From Escherichia coli (GTDB lineage: Bacteria > Pseudomonadota > Gammaproteobacteria > Enterobacterales > Enterobacteriaceae), in NCBI RefSeq assembly GCF_003991155.1, contig NZ_CP031294.1: a stretch of 64,000 bases of DNA, one strand, 5' to 3'. A program made the position numbers and the translations under genes. This document shows positions 5,432 through 22,877 of this stretch, one piece after another; within the stretch, counting starts at the first letter, position 1, and each line of letters opens with the position of its first letter. The notes below the pieces were generated by a model. That model searched no databases, had not been told where the DNA came from, and saw only the letters and a program-made list of their open reading frames with translations.

Positions 5432-8400
5432 TCAGTTACTTGTTGCCCCAACAGTACCTGCAAATTTCAGCCATTGACCTGACGGACTTCTATTACTACG
5501 GTAATGATAAACGAGGATTGCGTTTGTAACTCCACCGTAGTCAGCTTTATGTGACGTTGTTAAACGAATTGTATAATCACCGTTAGGTAGATTAAAAACT
5601 TCGATTATAGATTCTGCTAATTCTACAGCACCAAATCCCGTTATATTGTTGATACTGCCAGCATTGAATCCCATAGCATCGCCAAAGCCAATCCAATAAC
5701 TTTTGCTAAACGCCCCATTTGATTTTAGGTGGCTAATGAATGTGGACAAACTCATGCCCATATCCCCACCTGAAACAGAGGAAGTTCGCACAGTCATACT
5801 TGGAAGAGCACTGCTCTTCACATAGGAACTTAGAAGGTTTGTTACCTCTGTTTTCGTATAGGCATTAAGGTTAGCCGCAGTCAAAGTAATATCGGCAGAG
5901 CCATCAAACGCCACACCAGCAATTTTCCTTGCTGTCTGCAATTTTGTGGCAGTGGCAGCATTACCAGTAGTGTTCTGATTACCGGTTGTATTCACACCAG
6001 GTATTGAATCCTTAGCGGTATATACCTGCGCCCACGCAGACCATGCCGCATCAGTGGTATCTCTTCGGGAGCGAATGAAAACCGGCGCATGTGCACCGCT
6101 CGTACCACTCCAGCCAATAAGCAACTCGCCCTCACCAGCAGCACTCGCACCTTTCATGTGCAATACGTTGCCATACGTGGTCGGGTAGCTATTGCTGTAC
6201 GCCTCGTACATTTGAATGCCAGCAGTACCTTGAGCAGAACCGCTTAACGCCGTAACTCGGCCACGAGATACCAATGTATTAATGTTGATATCGCCTGAGC
6301 CATCAAACTTAACACCATTGATGTTTCTCGCTGTTTGCAACTTCGTAGCTGTTGAAGCATTACCGTTCAAACTACCATTTACGCCACCAGTCACATTTAG
6401 TCCATTACCAATTGATACAGCACCGCTGGTATTATTAATTGTAATAGGTCGCAAACCGTTCCATGAACCTAATGTGTCTCCTGATGCTGTTAGCATGAAA
6501 TATGTGTTCGATCCATCATTACGGATAAAGAACCCAAAGCTACCGTAAGCAATGCGGAAACCATTTGCATATTTTGAAATGATCTCGCCAGAAGATGTCA
6601 AACCTCCAGATAATGTACCACCGGTAAGAGGTAATGCACCGACATCAGAGGCTGTTGGTTTGTTTTTCGTGTTATATACTCTTCGCCATCCTGGAGAATA
6701 ATCTGTGCCATTAAATACATAGATAAACTCCGCATTAGTGAGAGCACCAGAGACACTCGTCGTTGTGGCCGTTGTTATACGGATCGTATAATTGTTTGAG
6801 CTACTACCGTTATTAAATACCTCTATAACAGCTCCTGCCAATGGAATAACGCCACAACCAGTTTCACTATTTGGTATGGTTGCACTATTGGCATAGGCCC
6901 ACGCACATCGAGCAATCCATGACTTTGTGTTAAATGCTCCATTATTTTGCAATAACGTCACTAACTGTGCTGTTGTTATTGCTCCGCCATTACTTCCTGT
7001 AGTTAACCAACCAGTAGGAGATGCCGGGCAACCTATATTTGCTGGCGACAAGGAAATATTTGCCGAGCCGTCAAACGACACCCCATTAATAGTACGCGCA
7101 GTCTGCAACTTCGTAGCAGTAGCCGCGTTGCCCGTTGTATTCTGATTACCAGTCGTATTAACACCTGGCAAATTAATATTCGCAGTACCATCAAAGCTCA
7201 CGCCGCCGATAGTTCTTGCCGTCTGAAGTTTTGTAGCAGTTGCAGCATTACCAGTGGTGTTCTGATTACCCGTAGTATTTACACCTGGAAGGTTGATATT
7301 TGCAGAACCGTCGAAACCAACTCCACCGATAGATCTTGCCGTCTGCAATTTCGTGGCTGTACTTGCATTACCATTCAATGAACCAGTTAATCCACCTGTA
7401 ACAGACAACGGACCTGAAACTGTTCCTCCGGTTGTTGGCAGTGCTCCAATATCTGATGGTGTAGGTTTCTGATGTGAGCTATACATCGTATAAACAACAC
7501 CATCGGTAACGCTGGAAGGCTTACTCGCTGAATATGTTGGCGAGGTATAAATAGAAACTGTCGCATTTGCAGTACAATCCCAATGGATATTTACACGAGT
7601 CGCATAATTGCCAATCTCAACGTAAATATCATATGTATCGCCGGATGTGTTGATCCAGGCGAAATTCGTTAATCCGACAGCTGTACGCTTCCACAAAGCA
7701 CCTGTAATCCCTTTGGGGTTTCCATTGCCTGCTCGTAGAACCAGTTCTGAAATGCCTGCCTGATGTGGGGAGCCGACGTTGTAACCAGCGCCACCAATCA
7801 ATGCGATGTAAACGATGGAACTCGCTTGTGGCATGGTAACCGTAGCCAGTTTGAACCACCCTGCCCCGCCAGAGAAAGACATCGTTACTGAATTTAAAGT
7901 ACCAATATCTTTCGGCGTTAATGTGATATCCGCAGTCAGTGCTTTACCGTTAACTTTTCGGTTAGATGGCACCCTGCTATTCGCATTGTCATTGGCTGCT
8001 TTAACTGCTTTTGGCGTTGCGGCCAGCGATTCACTGGTGCTGTCGACAGCACTGCTAAGTTTCACAACACCTTTAGTTGTAAGGCTTGCGTCTTCCATCG
8101 CAACTGCACCGGCAATCTCTTCAGCACGATCAGCAGCAGCTTCCGCACGGGTCGCAGCGGATTCAGCAGCAGTTTTGCTCTGAGATGCTGCCGTCGCACT
8201 GCCTGCCGCCTCTGTTGCTTTCGTGGATGCCGTCGTGGCACTGCCCTTCGCTGCTGACGCCTGTCTGGTCGCCTCATCTTTTGAAGCAGACGCAGATGAT
8301 GCCGATGACGCCGCCGAACTGGCGGACGATGCGGCAGCCGTTTTTGAGGATTCTGCGCTGGTTTCCGACGCTTTCGCGTTCGTTTCGGATGTCTTCGCTG

Positions 8401-9460
8401 CGGAAGCAGACCTCGCTGCTGCGCTGGCCTGTTCAGTGGCTTCGCCAGCCTTCGTTGTGGCTGTTGAAGCAGACGATGCGGCACTTTCTGCCGATTTTCC
8501 GGCGGCGGTGGCACTGGCTGAGGCCTGCCCGGCACTTGTTGACGCGGCACTGGCAGACGACGCAGCCGCTGTTTTTGAGCCTGCCGCAGCTGAGGCACTC
8601 TGTGCTGCTGCCGTCTCAGAAGACTTAGCGTTCGTCTCGGACGTTTTTGCCGCCTTCGCGGAATTGCCTGCCGCTGTTGCCGAGGAGGCTGCACTACTGG
8701 CGCTCAAGGATGCGTTCGTTTCTGATGATTTCGCTGCCTCTTTTGAGGCCGCCGCATCCCGGACTGAGGTGGCAGCTTCTGACGCTTTCGTGGTCGCGGT
8801 GGATGCAGAAGTGGCTGCTGATTGTTGTGACGCTGCGGCATTCGTTTCAGATTTTTTCGCAGCAGTTGCACTCGCACTTGCGGCACTTTGTGAGGATGCC
8901 GCAGCGGATGCACTTTGAGACGCTTGAGAGGCTTTTTCTCCAGCGGTATTGGCGCTTTCTGCTGCTGCGGCAGCACTGGCCGCCGCCTCACGAGCTTTGT
9001 CGCCAGCAGCATCAATCGCGTCAGTGTTATTTTTATACCACTCAACGTTTTCGTTGTGCTCGTTGACGATCTGCATTAGCGGCTTAACGGTTACTTCTGT
9101 ACCGTCTTCACGCTCGATTGTCACCTCATCCAGAGCAGTCAACCAACTGCGCATAGACTTGGAATCAGCCGACATACGCGACATTAGTGCTGTAAAGCGC
9201 GCGCTAAACTGTGTTAAGTCGCCTTCATAGGTCGTAATGATTCGGCACGGAACCTCAGACTGAGTTTCGCCGGTATAAGGTTCTGAGAGAACAATATTCG
9301 TATCGCTTATTACGCGCTTGATCTCATACAGCTTATTGTCGGGGCCAATGACGATCATCCCCGGCAACACACCATTAGCTGTTACGTTCCAGGCTGTCCC
9401 TGCCCCAACCAGAGTATTGCTACCCTGTGTAAATGTGATAGTACCTTCCCTGTACCACAT
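5432..9460 (-). CDS. phage tail fibre protein (long, Ser/Ala-rich linker, repeated GNAATATKLQTAR fibre repeats)
   Basis: 1342 aa; low-complexity A/S/T region; three or more tandem ~50-aa repeats containing GNAATATKLQTAR typical of phage fibre proteins; located downstream of J-like gene. Confidence 0.85.
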   Translation of the reverse strand: MWYREGTITFTQGSNTLVGAGTAWNVTANGVLPGMIVIGPDNKLYEIKRVISDTNIVLSEPYTGETQSEVPCRIITTYEGDLTQFSARFTALMSRMSADSKSMRSWLTALDEVTIEREDGTEVTVKPLMQIVNEHNENVEWYKNNTDAIDAAGDKAREAAASAAAAAESANTAGEKASQASQSASAAASSQSAASASATAAKKSETNAAASQQSAATSASTATTKASEAATSVRDAAASKEAAKSSETNASLSASSAASSATAAGNSAKAAKTSETNAKSSETAAAQSASAAAGSKTAAASSASAASTSAGQASASATAAGKSAESAASSASTATTKAGEATEQASAAARSASAAKTSETNAKASETSAESSKTAAASSASSAASSASSASASKDEATRQASAAKGSATTASTKATEAAGSATAASQSKTAAESAATRAEAAADRAEEIAGAVAMEDASLTTKGVVKLSSAVDSTSESLAATPKAVKAANDNANSRVPSNRKVNGKALTADITLTPKDIGTLNSVTMSFSGGAGWFKLATVTMPQASSIVYIALIGGAGYNVGSPHQAGISELVLRAGNGNPKGITGALWKRTAVGLTNFAWINTSGDTYDIYVEIGNYATRVNIHWDCTANATVSIYTSPTYSASKPSSVTDGVVYTMYSSHQKPTPSDIGALPTTGGTVSGPLSVTGGLTGSLNGNASTATKLQTARSIGGVGFDGSANINLPGVNTTGNQNTTGNAATATKLQTARTIGGVSFDGTANINLPGVNTTGNQNTTGNAATATKLQTARTINGVSFDGSANISLSPANIGCPASPTGWLTTGSNGGAITTAQLVTLLQNNGAFNTKSWIARCAWAYANSATIPNSETGCGVIPLAGAVIEVFNNGSSSNNYTIRITTATTTSVSGALTNAEFIYVFNGTDYSPGWRRVYNTKNKPTASDVGALPLTGGTLSGGLTSSGEIISKYANGFRIAYGSFGFFIRNDGSNTYFMLTASGDTLGSWNGLRPITINNTSGAVSIGNGLNVTGGVNGSLNGNASTATKLQTARNINGVKFDGSGDININTLVSRGRVTALSGSAQGTAGIQMYEAYSNSYPTTYGNVLHMKGASAAGEGELLIGWSGTSGAHAPVFIRSRRDTTDAAWSAWAQVYTAKDSIPGVNTTGNQNTTGNAATATKLQTARKIAGVAFDGSADITLTAANLNAYTKTEVTNLLSSYVKSSALPSMTVRTSSVSGGDMGMSLSTFISHLKSNGAFSKSYWIGFGDAMGFNAGSINNITGFGAVELAESIIEVFNLPNGDYTIRLTTSHKADYGGVTNAILVYHYRSNRSPSGQWLKFAGTVGATSN

Positions 9461-9553: not shown

Positions 9554-12500
9554 TCACAGACGGCCAATTCTTACTCGTAGGACGTTGTTATCGTCATAAA
9601 CGTCAATCCGCTGACCATTTATAACCAATCTCCCATTGCCGCCGCTATTACCGTTGATCTCAAGCGTTCCATTTTTGCCGAACCGCCATCCAGATCTACC
9701 GCTAACAAAATTGGTAGATTGCAGATCGCCTACTTTTGCATTGGTGATTGTGCCATCCTTGATATACGCTCCATTCATATAGGCGATACTGTTTTCGATA
9801 ACAAATGGCGTTGTGATCTTCCCGTTAACAGAGTTGACCAAACCAAACCTGTCCGCCTGAACCAAAAACTGAGATAGCCCAGTGGTGTCAATACCAAGCG
9901 CAATACCGGCAACATACTTCTGCCCTCCGCTCGTTGAAGTCTCCATTTTCAACGTCCACGCGGTTGATACTTTTTTGTTGGTATCAGCAATAGCTGTTGC
10001 CTGCTGTTGAATTGTCGCGGTATTTCCATCCACCTCTGCTTTCAGAGTATCGATTCGCCCACTCAGAGCATTATCTGCCTGCGTTCTCGCTGTCGTTTCA
10101 GTTGTGACCGCCGCAGAAATGTTGGCTGCTGTTTGAGACTCTAAGTTTGTGATTTGAGTCGCCAATGCAGCATCTTGCTCTGTACGCGTTTTCGTTTCGG
10201 TTGCTACAGCCGCTTTAATATCCTCTTTGTATTGAGAGGTCAGCTTGGTGATCTGAGACGACAACGCCGAGTCAGCATCAGTTCGAGCCTGCGTTTCAAC
10301 TGCAACGGCCGCACTAATATCTTTCGCTGTCTGTGCTTTTAAACTTGAAACCTCTTTTGTTAAAGCGGTATCACCATCTGCACGAGCCGTTGTTTCTCTG
10401 GCAAGAGACGCCTCGAGATCATTAGCTTTTGCTGTAAGAGACGTAATCTGGGTAGACAATGCACTATCGGCATCAGTCCTTGCTTTTGTCTCTACAGCAA
10501 CCGCTGCGGCAATATCAGTTCCGGTTTGTGCTCGCAGGCTGTTAATTTCTCGTGAGAGCGCCTGGTCAGCACTTGCTCTGGCCTCCTGCTCCTGAGTGAT
10601 GGCCGCGGATATATCACCGTCAACCTTTGACTGAAGCTGGTTTATTTGTTTGGCTAACGCAGAGTCCCCGCTTGCTCGGGCCTCCTGCTCACTACGTATT
10701 GCAGCAGAAATATCATCATCAACCTTTGCCTGAAGTTGGGTGATCTGGCTTGCCAGAGCCGAATCTTCCGTTGCTCGGGCTTCTTGCTCTTCCTTAATAG
10801 CTGCGACGATATCGTTGCTTACTTTCGACTCAAGCTGAGTGATCTGTGTCGTCAGAGCTTCATCGGCAGATGTACGAGCCTCCTGCTCTGTACTAATCGC
10901 CGCGCTGATATCTCCTTCAAACTTAGATTGCAGCTGAGTGACACGCTTTGCCAACGCTTCATCGCCATCGGCACGAGCGGTGGACTCTTCCAGAATACTG
11001 GCCTTAATGTCTTCGCCAATTTCTACGCGAATTTCCTCAACCTTCGTGGCCATTGCAGACATATCATCAGCAAAGGTTTTCTGTGTTGTTGCGATCTTCG
11101 CGTTATTGACCATCTGCTTGTGCTGGTCTTCATCTTGACGAAGAGCCAGGTCAATATTTGTTTTGGCTAACGCCTCAATGTTCGTAGTCAGTTCTGCACT
11201 GGCACGATCGACCTCTGCAACCGTCTTTTTCATTTCTTCAACGGCAGCGGAGCTTTCCTCTACCGTTGACTGCAACACTTCCAGTTGTTTAGCGTTTGCA
11301 GCATCGCCTTCAACACGAGCCTCGCTTTCCTTAGCAATAAGAGCCGCCGCTTCATCTCTTGCAGCCTTTATTGCCTCGACTGTATTAGCGAGAGCTTTAT
11401 CGTGTTCAGATACGGTGTTTTCGATTTCAACAATTGCAGCATCAGTAGCATCAATTTTTTCAAACGCTTCATTGACCTTGTCGATCGTTGCCGAAACCTC
11501 ACCTTTAAGCTCGGTTTGTGCGTTCTCCAAAGCATCGCTACGCTCGTTGAATTTTATTTCAAAATCCGCGAGGTTATCGCTGAACTGCTTATCTAATTCA
11601 GCTATATCTTCCTTAACGTCGTTTACCGCCCCCTCCAAAGATTCGACGCTCTGGTTGATATGCTCATTTAACTCGTCAACTGCTTCTTGAGAGGCTTTGC
11701 TGTTGATGTCCTCAAGCAGAGCCTGACCAAGCTCGGAAGATGTAATTTTGCCAGTCAGGAACGACAGTACATCGCGAGTTGTCGCCTCTGTACCCAAGTT
11801 TGAGTTCGGAGGACTTAACATACCTCGCTTGTTCGATGCTCGAACCCAGTAATACCACGTTTCGCTATCCCCAAGACCAGCATGTGTAAAGGTGGTGCTT
11901 GCAGACTCTGCGATCAGTTTCGCCGTATCCAGATTGTTGGTCTGGGATGCGTAAACATTAATGTGATCAAGGTCTACCGAATCTGGATTAACCCAATTCA
12001 GTATCACATTACGATAGTCTCCAACGGCCGTTAATGACGTTGGGGCATCCGGCGGTGTCATTGTGCCCAACACCTGATAAACGGTACTGATAATCTCTGT
12101 TTTTTTACCGTTGAATGAAACCGCATACAGCTGGAAGTCGTAGCGTCCATTCTCCGCGACATTAACGATTTCGTATTGCTCTTCGGTTACACGCGCCGAT
12201 TGCCAGTTCGATACATTGTTTTCATCAGAACGTCGCCAACTGATCCAATACTCTGGAGATTTCCCTTCCCATGTTGCAGTCAGTTTTACTGACAGGTTGC
12301 CCGGGCTTGAGAGATAAGTCCCTTCAGTGATTTGCAGATTAGATGGCTTGGAGTAAGTTGGGTCCAATACCGTCGTATTCTGCGGGATCAGCGTTGCACC
12401 ATTGTCGATTGCCTCATATTTAGACGGATTGTTCTCAACAGCGGTGATGTCAAAGCTACCCGGCGTTTCCCCTTGCGCGATGTTAACGATGCGAACGCGC

Positions 12501-14287
12501 ATAGGTTCGAGGTCTGGTTCTGTAATAGTCCAGACGCCGTTCAAAACAGGCGTTTCAGCCGAAGACAGGGCTTTTGAAAACGTAACTTTTGTTATATTTT
12601 CGCCAGTTTCAAGAACATCGCGTTCAACGATTTTGCCTTCCTGATTCAGTATTCGAATAAAGCAGCCGCCTTTGGCTAACGACACAGGCGCATCGAGTGT
12701 GACGCTGTTTTTGGTAAACGCCACAATTCGACCTGAGTTACGTTTGCCTGCGCGATATTTGTTCTGAATCAGAACGGTTTCACCAGGCATCAGAAATGAC
12801 GCGTCTAAGCCGGCAGTAAATGTAATTACATCCGACTCCATTCTGGCGGTATATAAAAGCCACAAACCAACTCGGTGAGCCTGCCCTCGGCTTGTACAGC
12901 CAAATGCTACGACTTCTGTTTTACGCTCACCATAACGGCGCATTGCGTCCTGATCTTCGACGTACTCGATGTTTTGCTTATAACCGTCCTCCTTGTTGTT
13001 GTAGGTTACGAGCGCAACGGATGGGCGATCTTTACGCGCAGAACCTTTATAGGTAAACAATCCATCTTTGACGTTAGAGTTGGTAAACATCATTACCGGA
13101 TCTGATGGGCTATCCTGCATGATGTTAACCATCCCACCAGCCCAAAACACCATGCCGCGGAATGCTCCGGCAATATCCTGAATTAGCCGGTATGCGTCCT
13201 GTCGACTGGTGATCTGCGTATTGATTGCAAAGCGTTTCTCTTTGCCACCAAAGCCATCATCGACCTCTTCGTCACAATATCGACCAATCTGGTACAACTG
13301 GCCAAGGTCAATCATAGATTCCGACACATACTGACCAAGGCCATATCGAGCATTGGTCAGCAAATCAAAGAGAATCCACGCGGGGTTCGAAGAAGACAAC
13401 AGCTTAAAAGTGCCATCCCATACCCCAGCGTAAGTGTTACTGGACTCGTTATAGTTTGAAGGTACTCGAATTTTTAGGCCACGCACCAGATAAGAGCGAG
13501 ATGGCATGGTGCTGCCGAATTGCTCAGAGTTTACCTTCAATCCAACCAAAACAGAGTTTGGATAGTTCATCGGTGTATCGACAATTTCCCCGATTGAATC
13601 CACCCATGTATCGTTATAGAGATACTGGCTACTGTTATCATCGGTAATACGGACCACACGAACCTTGTATGCTCGTCCAGGCTTAGGCAGCTTCAGCTCA
13701 TAGCTACGGTAATAAACGCCGGTCTTCTTTGCTGTTAGCTTAATGCCAACGCTTTTTTCACCTTCAGCGACCACATCTACAAATGTTGAGTCGCCATTTG
13801 CTATCTGGAACTTGTACTCAACAGTCGTACCGTTCGTGTCACCAGTTTTTTTATCTATGCTTCGCAAAGAAGGAAACTTCATGATGACACGAACCCGATC
13901 AGCTTCATCGTTATCGATTGAAACCGTTACATAATGTGTTTTTTTTAACTGGATATTGACGGATTTAGGCGTTTCAACGAAATCAAAGCCAGACATTGGA
14001 GTCTGGTCTTGTGAACCGTCGCGAAAATCCCATGTGATTCCGCTGAAGTTGGAGGAACCGTCTTCATTTACAATCGGCAGATCGTCGATAAAAATAGATC
14101 TTGCGCCATTTACTAAGCCGCCAATTACCCCTTCCCCAAGAAGATCGAGGATAGCGGCCATTGCACGAGAATTTACGGTATCGTCGGCTTCAACCGGTGT
14201 ACGGCTGGAGCTTTTGCTGCTTTTTTTACCACCCGCACCGGCAATAAACAGCGGTAGCTTTTTCTTCTTGAACTGTTCCATGTTCAA
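9554..14287 (-). CDS. lambda J-like central tail fibre / host specificity protein with internal coiled-coil repeat array
   Basis: 1577 aa; conserved J motifs NYPNSVLVGLKVNSEQFGS, GVWDGTFK, AFGCTSRGQAHRVGLWLLYT; C-terminal domain resembles lambda J C-terminus. Confidence 0.9.
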   Translation of the reverse strand: MNMEQFKKKKLPLFIAGAGGKKSSKSSSRTPVEADDTVNSRAMAAILDLLGEGVIGGLVNGARSIFIDDLPIVNEDGSSNFSGITWDFRDGSQDQTPMSGFDFVETPKSVNIQLKKTHYVTVSIDNDEADRVRVIMKFPSLRSIDKKTGDTNGTTVEYKFQIANGDSTFVDVVAEGEKSVGIKLTAKKTGVYYRSYELKLPKPGRAYKVRVVRITDDNSSQYLYNDTWVDSIGEIVDTPMNYPNSVLVGLKVNSEQFGSTMPSRSYLVRGLKIRVPSNYNESSNTYAGVWDGTFKLLSSSNPAWILFDLLTNARYGLGQYVSESMIDLGQLYQIGRYCDEEVDDGFGGKEKRFAINTQITSRQDAYRLIQDIAGAFRGMVFWAGGMVNIMQDSPSDPVMMFTNSNVKDGLFTYKGSARKDRPSVALVTYNNKEDGYKQNIEYVEDQDAMRRYGERKTEVVAFGCTSRGQAHRVGLWLLYTARMESDVITFTAGLDASFLMPGETVLIQNKYRAGKRNSGRIVAFTKNSVTLDAPVSLAKGGCFIRILNQEGKIVERDVLETGENITKVTFSKALSSAETPVLNGVWTITEPDLEPMRVRIVNIAQGETPGSFDITAVENNPSKYEAIDNGATLIPQNTTVLDPTYSKPSNLQITEGTYLSSPGNLSVKLTATWEGKSPEYWISWRRSDENNVSNWQSARVTEEQYEIVNVAENGRYDFQLYAVSFNGKKTEIISTVYQVLGTMTPPDAPTSLTAVGDYRNVILNWVNPDSVDLDHINVYASQTNNLDTAKLIAESASTTFTHAGLGDSETWYYWVRASNKRGMLSPPNSNLGTEATTRDVLSFLTGKITSSELGQALLEDINSKASQEAVDELNEHINQSVESLEGAVNDVKEDIAELDKQFSDNLADFEIKFNERSDALENAQTELKGEVSATIDKVNEAFEKIDATDAAIVEIENTVSEHDKALANTVEAIKAARDEAAALIAKESEARVEGDAANAKQLEVLQSTVEESSAAVEEMKKTVAEVDRASAELTTNIEALAKTNIDLALRQDEDQHKQMVNNAKIATTQKTFADDMSAMATKVEEIRVEIGEDIKASILEESTARADGDEALAKRVTQLQSKFEGDISAAISTEQEARTSADEALTTQITQLESKVSNDIVAAIKEEQEARATEDSALASQITQLQAKVDDDISAAIRSEQEARASGDSALAKQINQLQSKVDGDISAAITQEQEARASADQALSREINSLRAQTGTDIAAAVAVETKARTDADSALSTQITSLTAKANDLEASLARETTARADGDTALTKEVSSLKAQTAKDISAAVAVETQARTDADSALSSQITKLTSQYKEDIKAAVATETKTRTEQDAALATQITNLESQTAANISAAVTTETTARTQADNALSGRIDTLKAEVDGNTATIQQQATAIADTNKKVSTAWTLKMETSTSGGQKYVAGIALGIDTTGLSQFLVQADRFGLVNSVNGKITTPFVIENSIAYMNGAYIKDGTITNAKVGDLQSTNFVSGRSGWRFGKNGTLEINGNSGGNGRLVINGQRIDVYDDNNVLRVRIGRL

Positions 14288-16828: not shown

Positions 16829-19800
16829 TTAGTTACGTTGAGTGTTTGGGTTGAGTGATCCGCCAGGGCGTTTCTCTTGAGCGATAGTCTCAAGCGCGAT
16901 TGCTTTCATCCGTTGAGCGGCATTGTTCCATATGCTTTCTGTATCGCCGGATTCAGTTGTGCTACCGTCACTATGGACGTTGATCTCAATTGATACAGGA
17001 GAAAGAACATTTCCTCCTCCACTCATACCATCGGTACTGAGCGTTACAGGGATTGTTCGACCATCAGGCAATGGAACATACGCCTCATTCATATCGCCTT
17101 CCCCAAACAACGCCAATTGAGGTGAGTTGGCGATACCGCCTTTCTGGTATGCCCGGAGCGGGATCACGCCGTCTTTTCCGAATATGCCACCATTTGCAAA
17201 CTTCGGAATTGCAGGAATACCATTCGTGCCATCGGCAGCAGAACTGGTCAGATTGTTGAACCCGGAAGTTGAGCCAGAAGAACCGGACATCAATCCATCG
17301 AATCCACCACCAGCCCATACTGAAACCAAACCAGATGCAACTGTCGCGCCGAAATTCAACCACTTATTACCAGAGCCGGAAGCATTAGCTCCAAGCATTG
17401 CAAACGCGGCAGACAGAGCGCCGGTAACAGAGCTGAGGTTCTGCATCGAGAAGATGGAGTCCTTCACTGCTTTTGTCTCAGCATCTTTGGCTTCGGTGCT
17501 ATTAAATAGCCCTGATACCCAGCTACCAATCGCATTTGTTGCTGTGCCAATTGCGCTGGTGGTCTGCTGTGTCGTTTGCCCCAATCCAGTTACCGAACTG
17601 GACGTCTCCTTCGTGGCTTCTCCTACCGACTTGTCGCCATTAACAGTGTTGCTTATGCGCACACCTTGATTGGCAACTGCGGAAGCAACCCCGGTGAGCA
17701 AATTACCACTCTGTGAACTACCAGCTGCGGTGGTTCCCATCCCCAACATGTTCATTAGAGGCAGCGTGATCTGCGACTTCACGACCATATTGGTGATATC
17801 TTTCAAAATGGACTGAGATAGGCTGGAGAAGCTCATCTTCCCGTTAATAACGAAATCAGTCAGGACATCAGTTAAGCCACTAAACAAATCAGTCCAGGTG
17901 CTTTCGATCTGCTCTGCCAGATTTTCGTATTCCAGTGCCAACTTCTGCGTCGCAGTCCCCGTCTCTTTAATAAGCGCGGTATTGCCAGCAGCAATCAGTT
18001 GATTGATTTTCTTTGTATAAAGCGCCACAACTTTAGGATCAGACGCCTTATCACGAAGTTCTATCAACGCTTTGAGATTGCGGTTGTAGGTGTCTTCGAA
18101 ATCAGCAACTTTCTCTTCGCGAGACGGCGTATAGCCAGCACTAATAATGGAATCCGCCTCCGGTGCCCAAGTGGAGATCATCTGCTCAACATTGCGGCGA
18201 TTAAACATCTCACGATATTCAGGTGTCGCATTTTTGAGGTCTTCAAGACGTTTTTTCGCCTTGTCGATCATCTCTTGAGTGATGAACTCGTTAGGAACCG
18301 CATTAGCCAAATCTGTCAGCGATTTCGTTGTATCGCGAAGAGACTGATCAAACGATACCGTAGCCTTAGAGCTTTCACCCATTTGCCCCATAAGCTGATC
18401 GGCTTTGTCCAGAGCCTTCTGGTATCCGGCTGCCAGTTTCTGTTGCGCTGCCTGTTCCTTCTTGGCCGCACGCTGCGAGGCGTTAGCTGATCGTTGGGCT
18501 GCTTTCTCGGCAGCTGCTGCATCCTGTTCACGAGCTTTAGTAAGTGCGGCAATGGCTGCGGCACGCTCTTCATCGCTCATTTTCTCCAGAGAGCTGGCAC
18601 TGGATGCTTTCTGCAAATTAAGCTGCGTCTTGAGTTGTTTAGGCCCAATAATCGGCTTACCTTCGAAGTCCATCATCGGAGTGCCGTCAGGCAAAGTACG
18701 CTGATAAGTCGCAGAATCCATCTGGTTTCGCATATATTGCGCCAACGCCTTCTGAGCAGCTTTATCAGTTGTACCTAACCCAAGAACAGTCCCCTGGTTT
18801 GACATTACGCCCTTACCAGTTTTGGCCGCGTTATCTCTCTCGAACTCTGCCTGAGTAAGTTCCTGAGCAACGGCTTCCAAATGCTCCTGATAACCACGAA
18901 TACTGCCTTGCAGTTTCTGGATTTGCTCGGTATTGCCATCCTTTTTGGCTTTTTCAAGCTGATCATTAAGAGTCGCGATTTGCTTCTCGGTCGCATTCTT
19001 ACGAGAAGAAAGTGAATCAACCAGTTTTTGCGCAGGCTCCAGATAGCTTTTGTTTACCGTTTCACGTAACGGTGCCAATAGCTTGTTCTTTTCGTCATCT
19101 GAAAGTGAACCGTCATCATTGATTTTCTGGATCTTATCCAGAGCCTCCTGCCGGGCTTTCACGAATGTTGCCGCGAAAATCTGGTTTTCCGCTCGAATTT
19201 TCTCAATCTGAGATTCGGCAGCCTCTTTAGCCAAACGCTTTGCTACAGCGCCGTCACCAAGAGCTATCGTGCCGGTTATCTTTTGATACTCTTCCTGATT
19301 TTTTTTCAGGCGTGCTTCGATGTCAGCCTTCGACTCTTTGTGAGTAATAACACCGGCAGAGTTAGATACGTAATTAACACCCTCACCAGTTTTTAATGCT
19401 CGTTGATCAGCAAGAATCTGCTTTTCGAGCTTTTCTGCGCGGTCGGCCATTTGTGCACGTTTGGCCGCCGTCATCGCCTCTGGTATTTTCCTAATCTCGT
19501 CAACGACCTTTGAAGTTTCGCTGCGGAGCATGGTCATGTACGTGATTAGGCCAGCAACAGCTACAGTGGCAACTGTAAATGCTGCCCCTATAGGGTTTGC
19601 TGCAATGAACGCCGTTAATCCAGCAAAAGCGCCTTTAAGCCCCGTAATCGCCCCACGGATGGCGAAAATAAGAGAGGGGATCGGAGCCAGCCCCATACGT
19701 GCCGCACGATTGAATCGGGTTACTGCTGTAGCGCCGAGGTTAAATGGAGTCTGTATGGCGGTCGCCATCGTGGCAAAGGTGCTAACCATCTGGCTGCCTG

Positions 19801-21421
19801 CGCCAACTACCCCCATGATCCCTGCTCGCATCAGTTTGAACGCAACCATCGCGGCCACGACCTTACCGAGATTAATTACCAGCTCTTGGTTCTTTGCTAA
19901 CCATTGAGCAAGCTGACGCAACCCATCGATTGCCGTCGTTAACCCCGAGCCTAAAGAATTGGCAAACGAAATCCCTTCGGCGCTATTCATGATTGAAGCC
20001 AGTTCTTTCATCCCCTTCGATAGAGAATCCAGATATCCGGCCTGACCAACCCGATCAGCAAATAACGTGAATGACGTCTGAAGTTGCGCCAGCGCACCTG
20101 TGTAGGTTTGCATCATGTCTTTCGCTGCGTTCTCATTCTCCGCACGCAGACCAACAAACATCAGAGACAACGCCTGTTTTGCCTCAACCGTACCGCTGGC
20201 AACGGCTTTAGTCAGTTCCCCCATAGTGATGCCTGCGGCGTCTGCCATTGCCTGCATCGCGTTAGGAACGGCTTCACCTAATTGCTGACGTAGCTCTTCC
20301 ATTGACACAACGCCCTTACCGGACATCTGCTGAACGGCCACAGCCGCACGTTTCAACAGCTCACTATCACCACCAAAACGAGCAACGGAGTCCACCAGCG
20401 CCTTCAGAGAACCATCGGTTGGATCTAAGCCAGCAGAACGAAACTTCACGAAGGAATCTGTTAACGCCTGCATCGCGAACGGCGCATTTTGCGCCATGTC
20501 TACGATGTACTTCATATCATCAGCGGCAGCCTGGCCCGGGTTGGACTTCTCCTTATTCAACCCTCGAAGCATCACCCGCATACGTTCCATTTCGGCCGCA
20601 GCTTCAACAATAGGCTTCTGCCACCCAAACATGATGTCAGTAACCGTTCTGGCTGCATCTCCGATCTCGCCAAGCAGGAAAATGTTGCCACGAAGGCCAG
20701 AGAACATACCTCCTTCGTTACTTTTACCGCTATGGCCAGAAGCGCCGCTACGCCGCCCGCTACCACCATCGCCACTTCCAGATGTACGAACGCGTACCGG
20801 CTTGCTAATCAGTTGCTGACGTCCGATAACTTCGTCCATCTGCTCACGAACCTTTTTCAGTCCCTCGGCAGCCTGACTCGTTGTGACACCCCAATTACTG
20901 AGTCGCTTCGTCGTGGTATTAAGGCGCGTATTCATGCCACTCACGGACGCAGAGGCTTCTTTGGCCTCCGTACCAAAGCGGCTTGCGCTTTTGCTTGCAT
21001 AGGTCGCCCAATCAGAGAAATCATTTAGCTCTGATTGCACTTTACGTAATGACGCGGTGAGTTTATCTACTGAAGAAGTTGTCGTATCGACGCGCTCAAT
21101 CAGGGCTTTAAGACCAGAATTGAGGCTGGTGATGTTGCCACGCATTTTACGCGTAGCATCTGAAGCAAGCTCAAAACCGGCAGCTACATCCTGTAGTTTA
21201 TCTGCCGTAGAATCGAGCTTGCTTTCCAGAACGCCAATGATACGGGCGACCGAACCCAAAGAGCGTTCAAAGGTTTGGATTTTTTGAGCAGGCTTTGTTA
21301 CCTGCTCACCAAATCGAGTAAGCAGTTTCCCCGCACGATCGATTGACGCTGTAAACTGTTTGTCTTCCAGCGACAGGATAAACTCTACGTTTTGTGACAT
21401 TCCCTTGTCATCCTCTGCCAA
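16829..21421 (-). CDS. tail tape measure protein
   Basis: 1530 aa, coiled-coil rich, hydrophobic segments, between G/T-like chaperone genes and M-like gene. Confidence 0.85.
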   Translation of the reverse strand: MAEDDKGMSQNVEFILSLEDKQFTASIDRAGKLLTRFGEQVTKPAQKIQTFERSLGSVARIIGVLESKLDSTADKLQDVAAGFELASDATRKMRGNITSLNSGLKALIERVDTTTSSVDKLTASLRKVQSELNDFSDWATYASKSASRFGTEAKEASASVSGMNTRLNTTTKRLSNWGVTTSQAAEGLKKVREQMDEVIGRQQLISKPVRVRTSGSGDGGSGRRSGASGHSGKSNEGGMFSGLRGNIFLLGEIGDAARTVTDIMFGWQKPIVEAAAEMERMRVMLRGLNKEKSNPGQAAADDMKYIVDMAQNAPFAMQALTDSFVKFRSAGLDPTDGSLKALVDSVARFGGDSELLKRAAVAVQQMSGKGVVSMEELRQQLGEAVPNAMQAMADAAGITMGELTKAVASGTVEAKQALSLMFVGLRAENENAAKDMMQTYTGALAQLQTSFTLFADRVGQAGYLDSLSKGMKELASIMNSAEGISFANSLGSGLTTAIDGLRQLAQWLAKNQELVINLGKVVAAMVAFKLMRAGIMGVVGAGSQMVSTFATMATAIQTPFNLGATAVTRFNRAARMGLAPIPSLIFAIRGAITGLKGAFAGLTAFIAANPIGAAFTVATVAVAGLITYMTMLRSETSKVVDEIRKIPEAMTAAKRAQMADRAEKLEKQILADQRALKTGEGVNYVSNSAGVITHKESKADIEARLKKNQEEYQKITGTIALGDGAVAKRLAKEAAESQIEKIRAENQIFAATFVKARQEALDKIQKINDDGSLSDDEKNKLLAPLRETVNKSYLEPAQKLVDSLSSRKNATEKQIATLNDQLEKAKKDGNTEQIQKLQGSIRGYQEHLEAVAQELTQAEFERDNAAKTGKGVMSNQGTVLGLGTTDKAAQKALAQYMRNQMDSATYQRTLPDGTPMMDFEGKPIIGPKQLKTQLNLQKASSASSLEKMSDEERAAAIAALTKAREQDAAAAEKAAQRSANASQRAAKKEQAAQQKLAAGYQKALDKADQLMGQMGESSKATVSFDQSLRDTTKSLTDLANAVPNEFITQEMIDKAKKRLEDLKNATPEYREMFNRRNVEQMISTWAPEADSIISAGYTPSREEKVADFEDTYNRNLKALIELRDKASDPKVVALYTKKINQLIAAGNTALIKETGTATQKLALEYENLAEQIESTWTDLFSGLTDVLTDFVINGKMSFSSLSQSILKDITNMVVKSQITLPLMNMLGMGTTAAGSSQSGNLLTGVASAVANQGVRISNTVNGDKSVGEATKETSSSVTGLGQTTQQTTSAIGTATNAIGSWVSGLFNSTEAKDAETKAVKDSIFSMQNLSSVTGALSAAFAMLGANASGSGNKWLNFGATVASGLVSVWAGGGFDGLMSGSSGSTSGFNNLTSSAADGTNGIPAIPKFANGGIFGKDGVIPLRAYQKGGIANSPQLALFGEGDMNEAYVPLPDGRTIPVTLSTDGMSGGGNVLSPVSIEINVHSDGSTTESGDTESIWNNAAQRMKAIALETIAQEKRPGGSLNPNTQRN

Positions 21422-21677
21422 ATATTTGCATCAGTTGCTCTTTGGCGTCAGGGTCTGCCTTATCCTGGCTTGGATCGTAGACTTTATCTGTTACGACTGG
21501 TCTTCCAATCCTGAGTTGCAAACCCTCCATGAACGCCTTCACAGCCTCGCCATCCGCCTGGGACGCACGAGCGACTTGTAAGTTGCGGACATCCTCTTCC
21601 GCACGCAGACGGTCTATATTGCGACTGAGCATCCAGAACATCGTGAGAGGAACGTTCAGTAGCTCTAATGGCGACAC
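21408..21677 (-). CDS. tail assembly chaperone T-like segment (probably expressed as G-T fusion by frameshift)
   Basis: Short ORF in shifted frame immediately downstream of G-like ORF; canonical position. Confidence 0.45.
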   Translation of the reverse strand: MSPLELLNVPLTMFWMLSRNIDRLRAEEDVRNLQVARASQADGEAVKAFMEGLQLRIGRPVVTDKVYDPSQDKADPDAKEQLMQIFGRG

Positions 21678-21757
21678 GGCGTAGTGAGCAACTACACGAC
21701 TGAAATAGAATCCGAGATCTATTGAGACGGTCCTTGTCCCGGATTCATCGCGGGAAA

Positions 21758-22075
21758 TTACTTTGCCCCTTCGCCAGCCGCTTTTTCGTTTTCTTCATCA
21801 ATCACTTCCATAGCGAAGGTGAAGATCTGCTGGAGTTGCGGAACAGTCAGTTTTTCAAGAACTTCGTCAGGTACTGAAGGGATAACCTTACGAACCAGAT
21901 CTGCATAAGCTGTCACTTGCTCAACAGGAGACATGTTCATGAGATCTTTGCCTTCCATCTGCTTGATGGAAACGAACAGACCTACCGTCATTTCAACGAT
22001 GGGATATTCCTGACCGCCAAATTTGATGCTTTTCTTCGGAGGCAGAATGGAATCGAGATCGAGTAATTTGGTCAT
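21758..22075 (-). CDS. tail assembly chaperone G-like
   Basis: 105 aa acidic protein between major tail gene and tape measure gene. Confidence 0.6.
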   Translation of the reverse strand: MTKLLDLDSILPPKKSIKFGGQEYPIVEMTVGLFVSIKQMEGKDLMNMSPVEQVTAYADLVRKVIPSVPDEVLEKLTVPQLQQIFTFAMEVIDEENEKAAGEGAK

Positions 22076-22130
22076 TGGTTAAAATCCTTTTAAAAGAGAG
22101 GCCCATCCTGAGCCTCTGCTTAATTACTGA

Positions 22131-22877
22131 TTAATCTGCGGGGTTAATCGTTACTGACTTAGTTGCCTTCTTACCACCGCTATTGCTGGTGAAGGAGATA
22201 TTTGTAGAACCCTGCGCCACACCACGTACCAGACCCGTTTGATCTACCGTGGCCTTTTCCTGGTCTTCGGATTCCCAAACACCGGTTTTGTCTGCGGCAT
22301 CAGCTGGAGTGATTTCGGCTGTCAGTTGCACAGTTTCTCCAGCTTTTACGGTTGGAGATTCCGGTGAGATCGACACAGTTTTTACCGGTTTAGGACCGCT
22401 CATTTTGCCCAGAACGCCTTCATCATCCGGGTATGCGCTGAACTGAACAGAGAACACACGAACATCATCAGACTGGTAGGTCATAGTGAAGTTGCCCGCG
22501 GTTGCCGCTTTCGGGATGGTCAACACATAGTCGGTGGTGTCCTGCGGAGTCAGAACCAGCTCCTTCGCCACATCAATCAGGTTAACGCCCTGTGCAGATG
22601 TGATCGTGACAGAGTTGTCATCTTCGCTCAGAGTAGAACCAGGCATCAGGTCAACCATGTTTTGGAGTACAGACTCAGCCAGAGGCGCGGTGATGGTAAT
22701 GTTGCGCCCCTGAACTAATTCGGAAATTACGGTCTGCCCCAACTGATCGACGGTGACTTTCAGCGTTTCAGTGGCTACTTCAACCTGAACACCACCTTTG
22801 GTGTAACCCAAATCCACACCACCAAACGACACCTTACAGGCACCAAGTTTGATGTTTTTTACATGGGTATTAGACAT
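22131..22877 (-). CDS. major tail protein with C-terminal Ig-like (Big_2-type) domain
   Basis: Start set at internal ATG 22877 (MSNTHVKN) preceded by AAGGAG; C-terminal Ig-like repeat similar to the decoration protein domains. Confidence 0.7.
   Translation of the reverse strand: MSNTHVKNIKLGACKVSFGGVDLGYTKGGVQVEVATETLKVTVDQLGQTVISELVQGRNITITAPLAESVLQNMVDLMPGSTLSEDDNSVTITSAQGVNLIDVAKELVLTPQDTTDYVLTIPKAATAGNFTMTYQSDDVRVFSVQFSAYPDDEGVLGKMSGPKPVKTVSISPESPTVKAGETVQLTAEITPADAADKTGVWESEDQEKATVDQTGLVRGVAQGSTNISFTSNSGGKKATKSVTINPAD

Follow-up and report, generated by a model that had tools for sequence, protein, structure and literature searches.

How non-contractile phage tails obtain the energy to open and to breach the cell envelope is a long-standing question. 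In the F7-pyocin, the central fibre contains a 163-residue trimeric coiled coil that is converted to a triangular β-prism on cell contact, and this switch opens the tip and ejects the tape-measure protein; the F7 protein has been observed both as the coil and as the prism (He et al., 2026; PMC12874032). The coiled-coil-to-prism switch was described only in 2026, for a pyocin. The subject of this report is a J-like central fibre (tail-tip) protein encoded on the minus strand at positions 9554..14287 of a 64,000-nucleotide stretch of Escherichia coli DNA (NCBI RefSeq assembly GCF_003991155.1, contig NZ_CP031294.1; hereafter the window). In the shaft of this protein, the signature of the pyocin switch is strictly periodic and modular, and its length is two to three times that of the pyocin shaft. 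A modular, length-polymorphic version of the fold-switching shaft is the overall best explanation for these features, and we consider it fairly probable.

The motif SxSxxMxxLxS was defined for the F7 shaft, in which its direction tracks strand orientation and an Asp or Glu at the M position is often paired with an Arg four residues away (He et al., 2026; PMC12874032). In the F2-pyocin, residues 907–1084 of the central fibre were solved as a coiled coil, which was called metastable, and the side fibres are attached through their N-terminal domains where the shaft is kinked (bioRxiv 10.64898/2026.02.24.707460). In phage lambda, an α-helical shaft (residues 809–861) links the FNIII domains to the β-prism, and its C-terminal 21 residues (841–861) change from helix to β-strands on binding of the receptor LamB (PMC11101478). 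Residues 821–1172 of phage T1 gp33 were not resolved, and AlphaFold 3 (AF3) predicts for gp33 a protrusion of ~370 Å with an α/β-helix fold (PMC11945409). Repeats are mentioned neither for T1 gp33 (PMC11945409) nor in the two pyocin papers (PMC12874032; bioRxiv 10.64898/2026.02.24.707460).

The window J is a single open reading frame (ORF) that encodes 1577 amino-acid residues (aa) from a TTG start. The true start is likely the ATG at 14281, two codons downstream, which gives the 1575 aa annotated in phage Cyrano. The gene and its parts, with the evidence for each, are as follows (HMM, hidden Markov model; AF2, AlphaFold 2).

9554..14287, minus strand: J-like central fibre or tail-tip protein (ORF, Pfam, PHROG, Cyrano identity, gene order)
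11699..14287, minus strand: conserved J core, hub and FNIII domains, aa 1–863 (aligns to lambda J 3–837; phmmer against the PDB)
11063..11698, minus strand: proximal shaft, a non-repeating helix, aa 864–1075 (autocorrelation, periodicity, unit HMM, allele alignment)
10973..11242, minus strand: most conserved stretch of the insertion, aa ~1016–1105, including KTNIDLALRQDEDQHKQMVNNAKIATTQK (alignment of seven allele classes)
10964..11062, minus strand: unit R0, degenerate first unit, aa 1076–1108 (unit HMM 16–28 bits; forward and reverse motif)
10076..10963, minus strand: units R1–R9, nine clear 33-aa units, aa 1109–1404 (boundaries, identity matrices, unit HMM, motif)
9977..10075, minus strand: unit R10, degenerate last unit, aa 1405–1437 (unit HMM 23 bits; AF2; F2 comparison)
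9611..10015, minus strand: Phage_Tail_Tip (PF09327) domain, aa 1425–1559 (Pfam, lambda J alignment, Foldseek)

Pfam recognizes FNIII-A_GpJ at aa 104–238 (E = 1.5e-29), Phage-tail_3 at aa 360–523 (E = 7e-34), fn3 at aa 747–826 (E = 2e-05) and PF09327 at aa 1425–1559 (E = 1.4e-41). The PHROGs label of the product is 'central tail fiber J', and the gene is 99.2% identical at the nucleotide level to that of the Cyrano 'tail host specificity protein J'. Over query residues ~20–865, lambda J (8iyk_J), the F2-pyocin fibre (25vf_A) and T1 gp33 (9l9p_S) all align in phmmer searches of the PDB. Lambda J residues 3–837 align to aa 21–863 (E = 2.3e-124) and residues 839–971 to aa 1420–1549, which makes the PF09327 domain the counterpart of the lambda β-prism 'central straight fibre'. 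The ~556 aa in between are without a lambda counterpart, and in this alignment sense the array is indeed 'inserted', as a first-pass annotation of the window had called it. The insertion point maps inside the lambda α-helical shaft.

Lambda gpJ (PDB 8iyk, 8xci, 8xcj) resembles the window J in its homologous core, FNIII domains and PF09327 β-prism, in the order of the flanking genes, and in having an α-helical shaft with an end that becomes β-stranded on receptor binding. It differs in that its shaft comprises only ~53 aa, whereas the window J has ~556 extra residues at this place, and in that its Ig-like receptor-binding domain (~972–1132) is absent from the window J, which ends 18 aa after PF09327. 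The NCBIfam model lambda_TipJ gives J 527 bits against a cut-off of 1950 bits.

The array is located between the last FN3 domain and PF09327. Over aa 1080–1420, the residue autocorrelation reaches 0.47, 0.39 and 0.31 at lags of 33, 66 and 99, and the lag-33 signal is absent in aa 850–1080. When unit boundaries are set by anchoring on a recurring D-x-A-L, R6 has 32 aa and all other units of R1–R9 have 33 aa (99 nt), and the whole repeat span from R0 to R10 occupies 9977..11062. The unit HMM places the unit starts at aa 1077, 1109, 1142, 1175, 1208, 1241, 1274, 1306, 1339, 1372, and 1405; for the nine core units, the E-values range from 1e-13 to 1e-18 (45–59 bits). Pairwise identity among R1–R9 is 34–79% for amino acids and 44–71% for codon-aligned nucleotides, and the longest exact nucleotide match between any two units is 12 nt. 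Two subtypes of unit are discernible, R1–R4 and R5/R7–R9, which indicates that the duplications are old and that the units have since diverged.

The first-pass annotation had placed about ten near-identical repeats of ~34 aa at 10030–11740, between the J core and the lambda-J-like C-terminal domain. The placement is borne out by a single ORF in which the Pfam core domains and PF09327 flank the periodic array, and the number is close, with nine clear units and one degenerate unit on either side. The repeat length is 33 aa rather than ~34, the units are too diverged to be called near-identical, and only part of the span is repetitive: its upstream two fifths (11063..11740, aa 850–1075) are mostly a non-repeating helix. 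Tandem-repeat analysis of the DNA, which the annotation had proposed as a check, detects little of the array, as Tandem Repeats Finder reports only 2.2 copies (10572..10789, 76% matches), corresponding to the most similar unit pair. The array is thus under-reported by DNA repeat tools, and protein-level HMMs are needed. Scans of the repeat region with Pfam, NCBIfam and relaxed Pfam settings gave no family over the cut-off, only sub-threshold matches to generic coiled-coil families such as SF-assemblin. When aa 1076–1577 were searched against 1.84 billion cluster representatives, 3,306 matches were obtained at E ≤ 1e-3, including 1,498 at E ≤ 1e-10; the best 150 homologues have 0–21 units each, with a spacing of mostly 32 or 33 residues.

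In each of R0–R9, SxSxxMxxLxS is present in the forward direction at offset 3 and reversed at offset 21 (ALAKQINQLQS and AAITQEQEARA, respectively, in R4), and R10 has the forward copy. Because each unit has one forward and one reversed motif, one unit could supply one β-hairpin. In aa 850–1440, the motif occurs 19 times in the forward and 13 times in the reverse direction, compared with ~3.8 expected and with maxima of 12 and 11 in shuffled sequences. In 275 units from 150 diverse homologues, gathered with an HMM built from the window J, a small residue occupies positions 3, 5, 13, 21, 29, and 31, the six S positions of the motif, in 98–100% of units; the two L positions, 11 and 23, are Leu, Ile, Val, Met or Phe in 99–100%. 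A hydrophobic residue is found at position 8 in 98%, and 99% of units have Glu26, as do 99% for Arg30. The profile agrees with the pattern published for F7, the acidic residue at an M position with its Arg partner included.

The relationship to the pyocin shaft is also seen in direct alignment. J aa 1242–1549 match residues 882–1193 of F2-pyocin PA0641 (phmmer, E = 1.2e-24), and the unit HMM recognizes F2 residues 1017–1046 (E = 2e-9) and 1047–1074 (E = 1e-10), both of which are inside the solved coiled coil. The F-type pyocin central fibres (F7 CFP; F2 PA0641, PDB 25vf) and the window J have in common a J-like hub, FNIII domains, a long shaft and a C-terminal β-prism, homologous sequences in the shaft and in the C-terminal domain, the SxSxxMxxLxS motif with its Glu/Arg pair, and a side fibre with a similar N-terminal domain (for the window, a marginal match at E = 0.004). 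They differ in several respects: the J shaft is ~556 aa long and includes a 345-aa regular array, compared with ~163–172 aa in the pyocins; in this part of J the 33-aa units are clearly periodic, whereas the shaft of the pyocins is for the most part degenerate; and the window J belongs to an infectious phage-plasmid rather than a tailocin, has a polymorphic number of units, and is not followed by PyoF11/F12 (PA0642-type) genes. T1 gp33 (PDB 9l9p_S) is likewise J-like and has the same 33-aa units (ALSREIDQLKAQIGDDIQASLTDIREVIATETE), located in its unresolved C-terminus, and the same conserved C-terminal domain ending in LRVQIGRL, but only about three or four units. It is very probable that the array is the central fibre's expanded α-helical shaft and shares ancestry with the shafts of the F-pyocins and T1.

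The predicted coiled-coil core positions of each unit are 4, 8, and 11; 15, 19, and 22; and 26, 30, and 33, which can be read as three hendecads, and the odd unit positions form a period-2 stripe of apolar or small residues. The hydrophobicity spectrum of the unit has peaks at 2.06 and at ~3.65–3.67 residues, with none at 3.5. When columns are permuted, the 2.06 harmonic has p = 0.016, and both harmonics occur together in 0.2% of permutations. This dual periodicity is evidence that the unit sequence is compatible with both a helix bundle and a β-sheet, but it is not evidence of switching.

The 2.06 harmonic is the strongest in the unit, and it would also be expected if the units were hairpin modules of a static triangular β-prism that extends the PF09327 prism and never forms a coiled coil. 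In an AF2 monomer model of aa 1306–1577 (26 sequences; mean predicted local distance difference test score, pLDDT, 77.7), strands run from aa 1411 onward, continuous with the PF09327 domain, and the diverged unit R10 is a β-hairpin; in addition, 30% of related central fibres were predicted as a prism by AF3 (He et al., 2026; PMC12874032). The same model has helices at aa 1307–1386 and 1390–1409, that is, over R7–R9 (block-mean pLDDT ~72–87). This helical prediction, the pre-ejection coiled-coil structures of the homologous F2 and F7 segments, and the conserved Glu26–Arg30 i/i+4 pair, which fits a helix, make a permanent β fibre improbable. The F2 homologue of R10 (residues 1047–1074) falls in the region solved as helical. 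Foldseek matches of the AF2 model include the open state of lambda gpJ (8xcj/8xci) and the SU10 tail-tip fibre (7z4b_EA).

The helices over R7–R9 are equally what would be seen if the array were a rigid trimeric coiled coil that only sets the reach of the tip, for example, through O-antigen or capsule, and does not refold. Such a spacer, similar to the coiled-coil element for reach envisaged in the first-pass annotation, is in keeping with the viability of phages that have different unit counts (SSU5 with 5, PhiR41_1 with 9, Cyrano with 10) and with variation in length by whole units. It leaves unexplained the presence of small residues in at least 98% of units at six non-core positions and the strong period-2 hydrophobic pattern, and the homologous pyocin shaft is experimentally metastable. 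We therefore regard a static spacer as rather unlikely; the earlier description is probably incomplete, as the unit carries the signature of the F-type pyocin fold-switching shaft.

In the fold-switching reading, which we prefer, the array would constitute the distal two thirds of the trimeric central fibre shaft, between the tail-tip FNIII clamp and the C-terminal β-prism, with each 33-aa unit made up of three hendecads and potentially giving one β-hairpin. By homology, the shaft would be a metastable coiled coil in the virion, and engagement of a receptor would cause it to refold into a triangular β-prism, seeded from the C-terminal prism. For metastability and refolding during infection, the motif, the homology and the periodicity tip the balance slightly in favour. 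What the analysis demonstrates is the anatomy of the repeats, their match to the motif, the homology in sequence with the F-pyocin shaft, and the variation in copy number with its junctions; the trimeric coiled-coil state, the fold switch, its geometry and any effect on host range are what we infer.

In standard geometry, a unit of this size measures ~4.9 nm as a helix and ~1 nm as a two-strand layer. Refolding would then shorten the 345-aa array from ~50 nm to ~10 nm, free the FNIII domains and lead to opening of the tip of the tail. The number of units would be adjustable in evolution through rare in-register gains and losses at microhomologies; each unit would change the length of the shaft by ~4.9 nm and, if the shaft acts as a spring, also the stroke and the stored energy. 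We put forward only tentatively that each unit is a self-contained α-to-β switching module and that the shaft is a spring of interchangeable modules, with stroke and energy tuned by the number of units.

Several points weigh against a fold switch in J. The 3.67-residue harmonic taken alone is not significant (p ~ 0.19), and the 275-unit profile is biased toward the motif by the origin of its HMM. AF2 modelling of a pseudo-trimer (three copies of aa 1339–1577 joined by 70-residue Gly-Ser linkers, with a tiled 10-sequence alignment) was uninformative on both a trimeric coil and a prism, with a mean pLDDT of 33.8 and a predicted template modelling score (pTM) of 0.20. The authors of the F2 structure report a heptad register with a stutter, not hendecads (bioRxiv 10.64898/2026.02.24.707460). 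Lambda and T5 are without an extensive switch (He et al., 2026; PMC12874032), and the mechanism is therefore not universal among J homologues. In the pyocins, genes for PyoF11/F12-type adhesins are directly downstream of the central fibre gene; no genes of this type are found between J and the side-fibre gene in the window, and none is annotated in Cyrano or SSU5, so that the trigger may differ from that of the pyocin. Lastly, the similarity of the window side fibre to the F2-pyocin side fibre is marginal.

The replicon from which the window J derives is a phage-plasmid of E. coli and is SSU5-like. In a set of 5,426 complete E. coli genomes, the J gene matches 228 plasmids and no chromosomes, several of the plasmids at 100% identity, and 163 of the 228 cover at least 80% of the query. 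Phage matches are Cyrano, CMS-2020a and PhiR41_1, as well as Salmonella phage SSU5 over the first 62% of the gene. J therefore belongs to a common family of E. coli phage-plasmids, and it is also present in the culturable phages Cyrano, SSU5 and PhiR41_1. In Cyrano, J is preceded by the genes for the tape measure protein, M, L, K and I and followed by the long tail fibre gene and then the lysis genes; SSU5 has the same order from the tape measure gene to the tail fibre gene.

The number of units differs between close relatives. Counting units above the HMM score cut-off, with R0 included, the length classes among the best 120 database homologues, nearly all from Escherichia or Shigella, are 1575/1574 aa (10 units), 1535 aa (9), 1515 aa (10), 1509 aa (8), 1498 aa (8), 1465 aa (7), 1426/1425 aa (6), 1386/1385 aa (5), and 1353 aa (4). 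Counts for individual phages are 5 in SSU5, 9 in PhiR41_1, and 10 in both CMS-2020a (SCU-175) and Cyrano. Phage genome records exist for phages with 5, 9 and 10 scoring units, and a laboratory host is named for two of them. The expectation in the first-pass annotation that tip length varies between variants is accordingly confirmed, with 1353–1577 aa and 4–10 scoring units in close relatives and one further allele with a duplicated unit.

Units have been gained or lost in register in five independent events, in alleles that are otherwise ~98–99.8% identical where DNA was compared. PhiR41_1 (1535 aa) has one unit fewer than CMS-2020a SCU-175 (1568 aa), with the crossover in the 11-nt sequence GCTGCTATTAA and flanks that are 99.6–99.8% identical. 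P0003 (1509 aa) has two units fewer than the window allele, with a chimeric R2/R3/R4 unit and junctions of ~8 and 12 nt. In a Shigella sonnei plasmid, R3 is duplicated, a gain of one unit, and the junction falls in GCCCGAGCAA. Plasmid AH02 (1541 aa) lacks precisely R4, and the microhomology there is only 3 nt, GAC. P0117 (1353 aa) has one unit fewer than P0020 (1386 aa), with a junction at KDI that is defined only at the protein level. The DNA junctions of the four events for which they were examined are microhomologies of 3–12 nt, and all five events keep the 33-aa register.

The first-pass annotation had regarded the underlying ~100-bp DNA repeats as a substrate for recombination, and it had named low DNA identity together with a conserved copy number as findings that would speak against this view. 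DNA identity is low, and copy number varies. The units are too diverged for ordinary homologous recombination, and homologous recombination between units was rejected as the source of length variation on account of the 3–12-nt microhomologies at the junctions. Such short junctions point to illegitimate recombination or slippage with selection for in-phase products, not to homology-driven exchange, and the unit changes are better described as rare events of this kind followed by selection for in-register products. Assembly artefacts are an unlikely source of the length variants: three are in complete records (PhiR41_1, CMS-2020a and AH02), and the units are too diverged to collapse.

Five in-register insertions or deletions among close relatives might also suggest a contingency locus, at which DNA repeats drive frequent slippage or recombination and hence rapid, reversible switching of length within a lineage. 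With 44–71% nucleotide identity between units, no exact match longer than 12 nt, junctions at short microhomologies and duplicated units that are old and diverged, this is very improbable. In addition, ~70% of 60 evenly spaced records of E. coli plasmids have a J span of 4,728–4,734 nt, which is the 10-unit length (two of these are interrupted by an insertion sequence, IS), and the J locus is not hypervariable.

Two further arrangements of the distal part of J were observed. In the S. sonnei plasmid contig ABGPZI010000001.1, there is also an out-of-register deletion of 117 aa at J aa ~1234, which removes R7–R10 and joins the start of R7 (DTALTKEVSS) directly to ADTNKKVSTAW. Klebsiella relatives (vB_KpnS_p4727, PQ492289.1) share the first ~2.6 kb of J at ~75% nucleotide identity. 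The J ORF of vB_KpnS_p4727 from locus position ~5980 onward exceeds 2,868 aa, extends out of the fetched locus and contains almost no 33-aa units; in the Klebsiella relatives, the distal architecture of J is thus of another kind and far longer.

Published work already covers the protein family, the long shaft and the idea of a fold switch. Literature searches on repeats or copy number in J shafts and on hendecads in phage tails returned nothing specific, and a survey of phage-plasmids mentions the structural genes only as a conserved block. We did not find described a shaft composed of a regular 33-aa module with one forward and one reverse motif per unit, nor the presence of ~10 such units in a common E. 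coli phage-plasmid and of up to 21 elsewhere, with a unit number that is polymorphic through in-register insertions and deletions. With a simple unit profile, the module can be recognized in over 1,400 protein clusters, and no curated family covers it. Because unit deletions and duplications occur naturally and in register in near-identical genes, the spring model is directly testable across alleles. If it is correct, the alleles with 4–10 scoring units in SSU5-like phage-plasmids, the allele with one added duplicate and the distant homologues with up to 21 units would form a ready test series, which could link spring length to envelope penetration or host range.

The proximal shaft, upstream of the array, is of a different character. 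A broader unit profile detects only two weak, degenerate units there (aa 963–992 and 995–1016), and the hydrophobic periodicity of the non-repeating helix has a single peak at 3.56 residues. In allele alignments, the length of the proximal shaft differs by 7, 18 or 25 aa; these differences are sums of 7 and 11 and would keep the coiled-coil register. The stretch of aa ~1016–1105 is nearly invariant in seven allele classes, including that of Salmonella phage SSU5, and its flanks are variable. It contains an acidic, motif-free break (...LALRQDEDQHKQMVNN...; LRQDEDQHKQ) just upstream of the array. The docking place of F-pyocin side fibres is a gap in the shaft that is acidic or kinked and, in the F7-pyocin, Asp-rich, and by analogy the conserved break in J is a candidate docking site for side fibres.

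Directly downstream of J, after a gap of 93 nt, is the gene for such a fibre.

5432..9460, minus strand: side tail fibre, 1342 aa (ORF; Pfam Gp34_trimer; tail fibre annotation in Cyrano)
9137..9457, minus strand: side-fibre N-terminal domain, aa 2–108 (phmmer to F2-pyocin side fibre 25ve_A)

Residues 2–108 of this protein marginally match residues 3–105 of 25ve_A ('F2-pyocin side fiber'), its shaft-docking domain, in phmmer (E = 0.004). Since F-pyocin side fibres bind the shaft and the N-terminus of the downstream fibre is similar, the array itself might be a docking ladder, in which each unit binds a side tail fibre or another accessory protein and copy number sets the load. The side fibres of the pyocins are bound at a single short gap, acidic or kinked, and not at regular repeats, the analogous acidic break in J is located upstream of the array, and the units vary between alleles, whereas the fibre N-terminus would require a fixed site. 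A role of the array as a docking ladder is thus highly unlikely.

The side fibre has other sequence features. A stretch of ~300 aa (aa 151–450, ~8111..9010) contains 68–78% Ala, Ser and Thr with recurring K(S/T)SETNA motifs; it is probably a low-complexity helical stalk, and several spurious ORFs on both strands overlap it. Five copies of a ~40-aa motif, GN(A/S)ATATKLQTAR.I.GV.FDGS..I, are encoded in 5836..7399 (minus strand) at aa 700, 740, 780, 1036, and 1169; three of them are in tandem with a spacing of 40 aa, with PGVNTTGNQNTTGNA before each. The only Pfam match in the side fibre is Gp34_trimer, at aa 907–1008.

The plus-strand ORFs 10736..11170, 11163..11690 and 11285..11596 are antisense to J and were treated as spurious. 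J is split by an IS3-family or IS1 element in NZ_CP053233.1, NZ_CP151018.1, NZ_CP029421.1, NZ_CP028430.1, and NZ_CP020118.1, which are otherwise near-identical phage-plasmids, and this suggests that these copies can no longer yield infectious particles. In Cyrano, the region beyond the fibre and lysis module (locus positions 19507..22451) encodes a KacT-type acetyltransferase toxin with its antitoxin, ParA, and a RelE/ParE toxin. Plasmid-maintenance genes thus adjoin the phage structural block in Cyrano, and the equivalent region of the window is downstream of the lysis genes.

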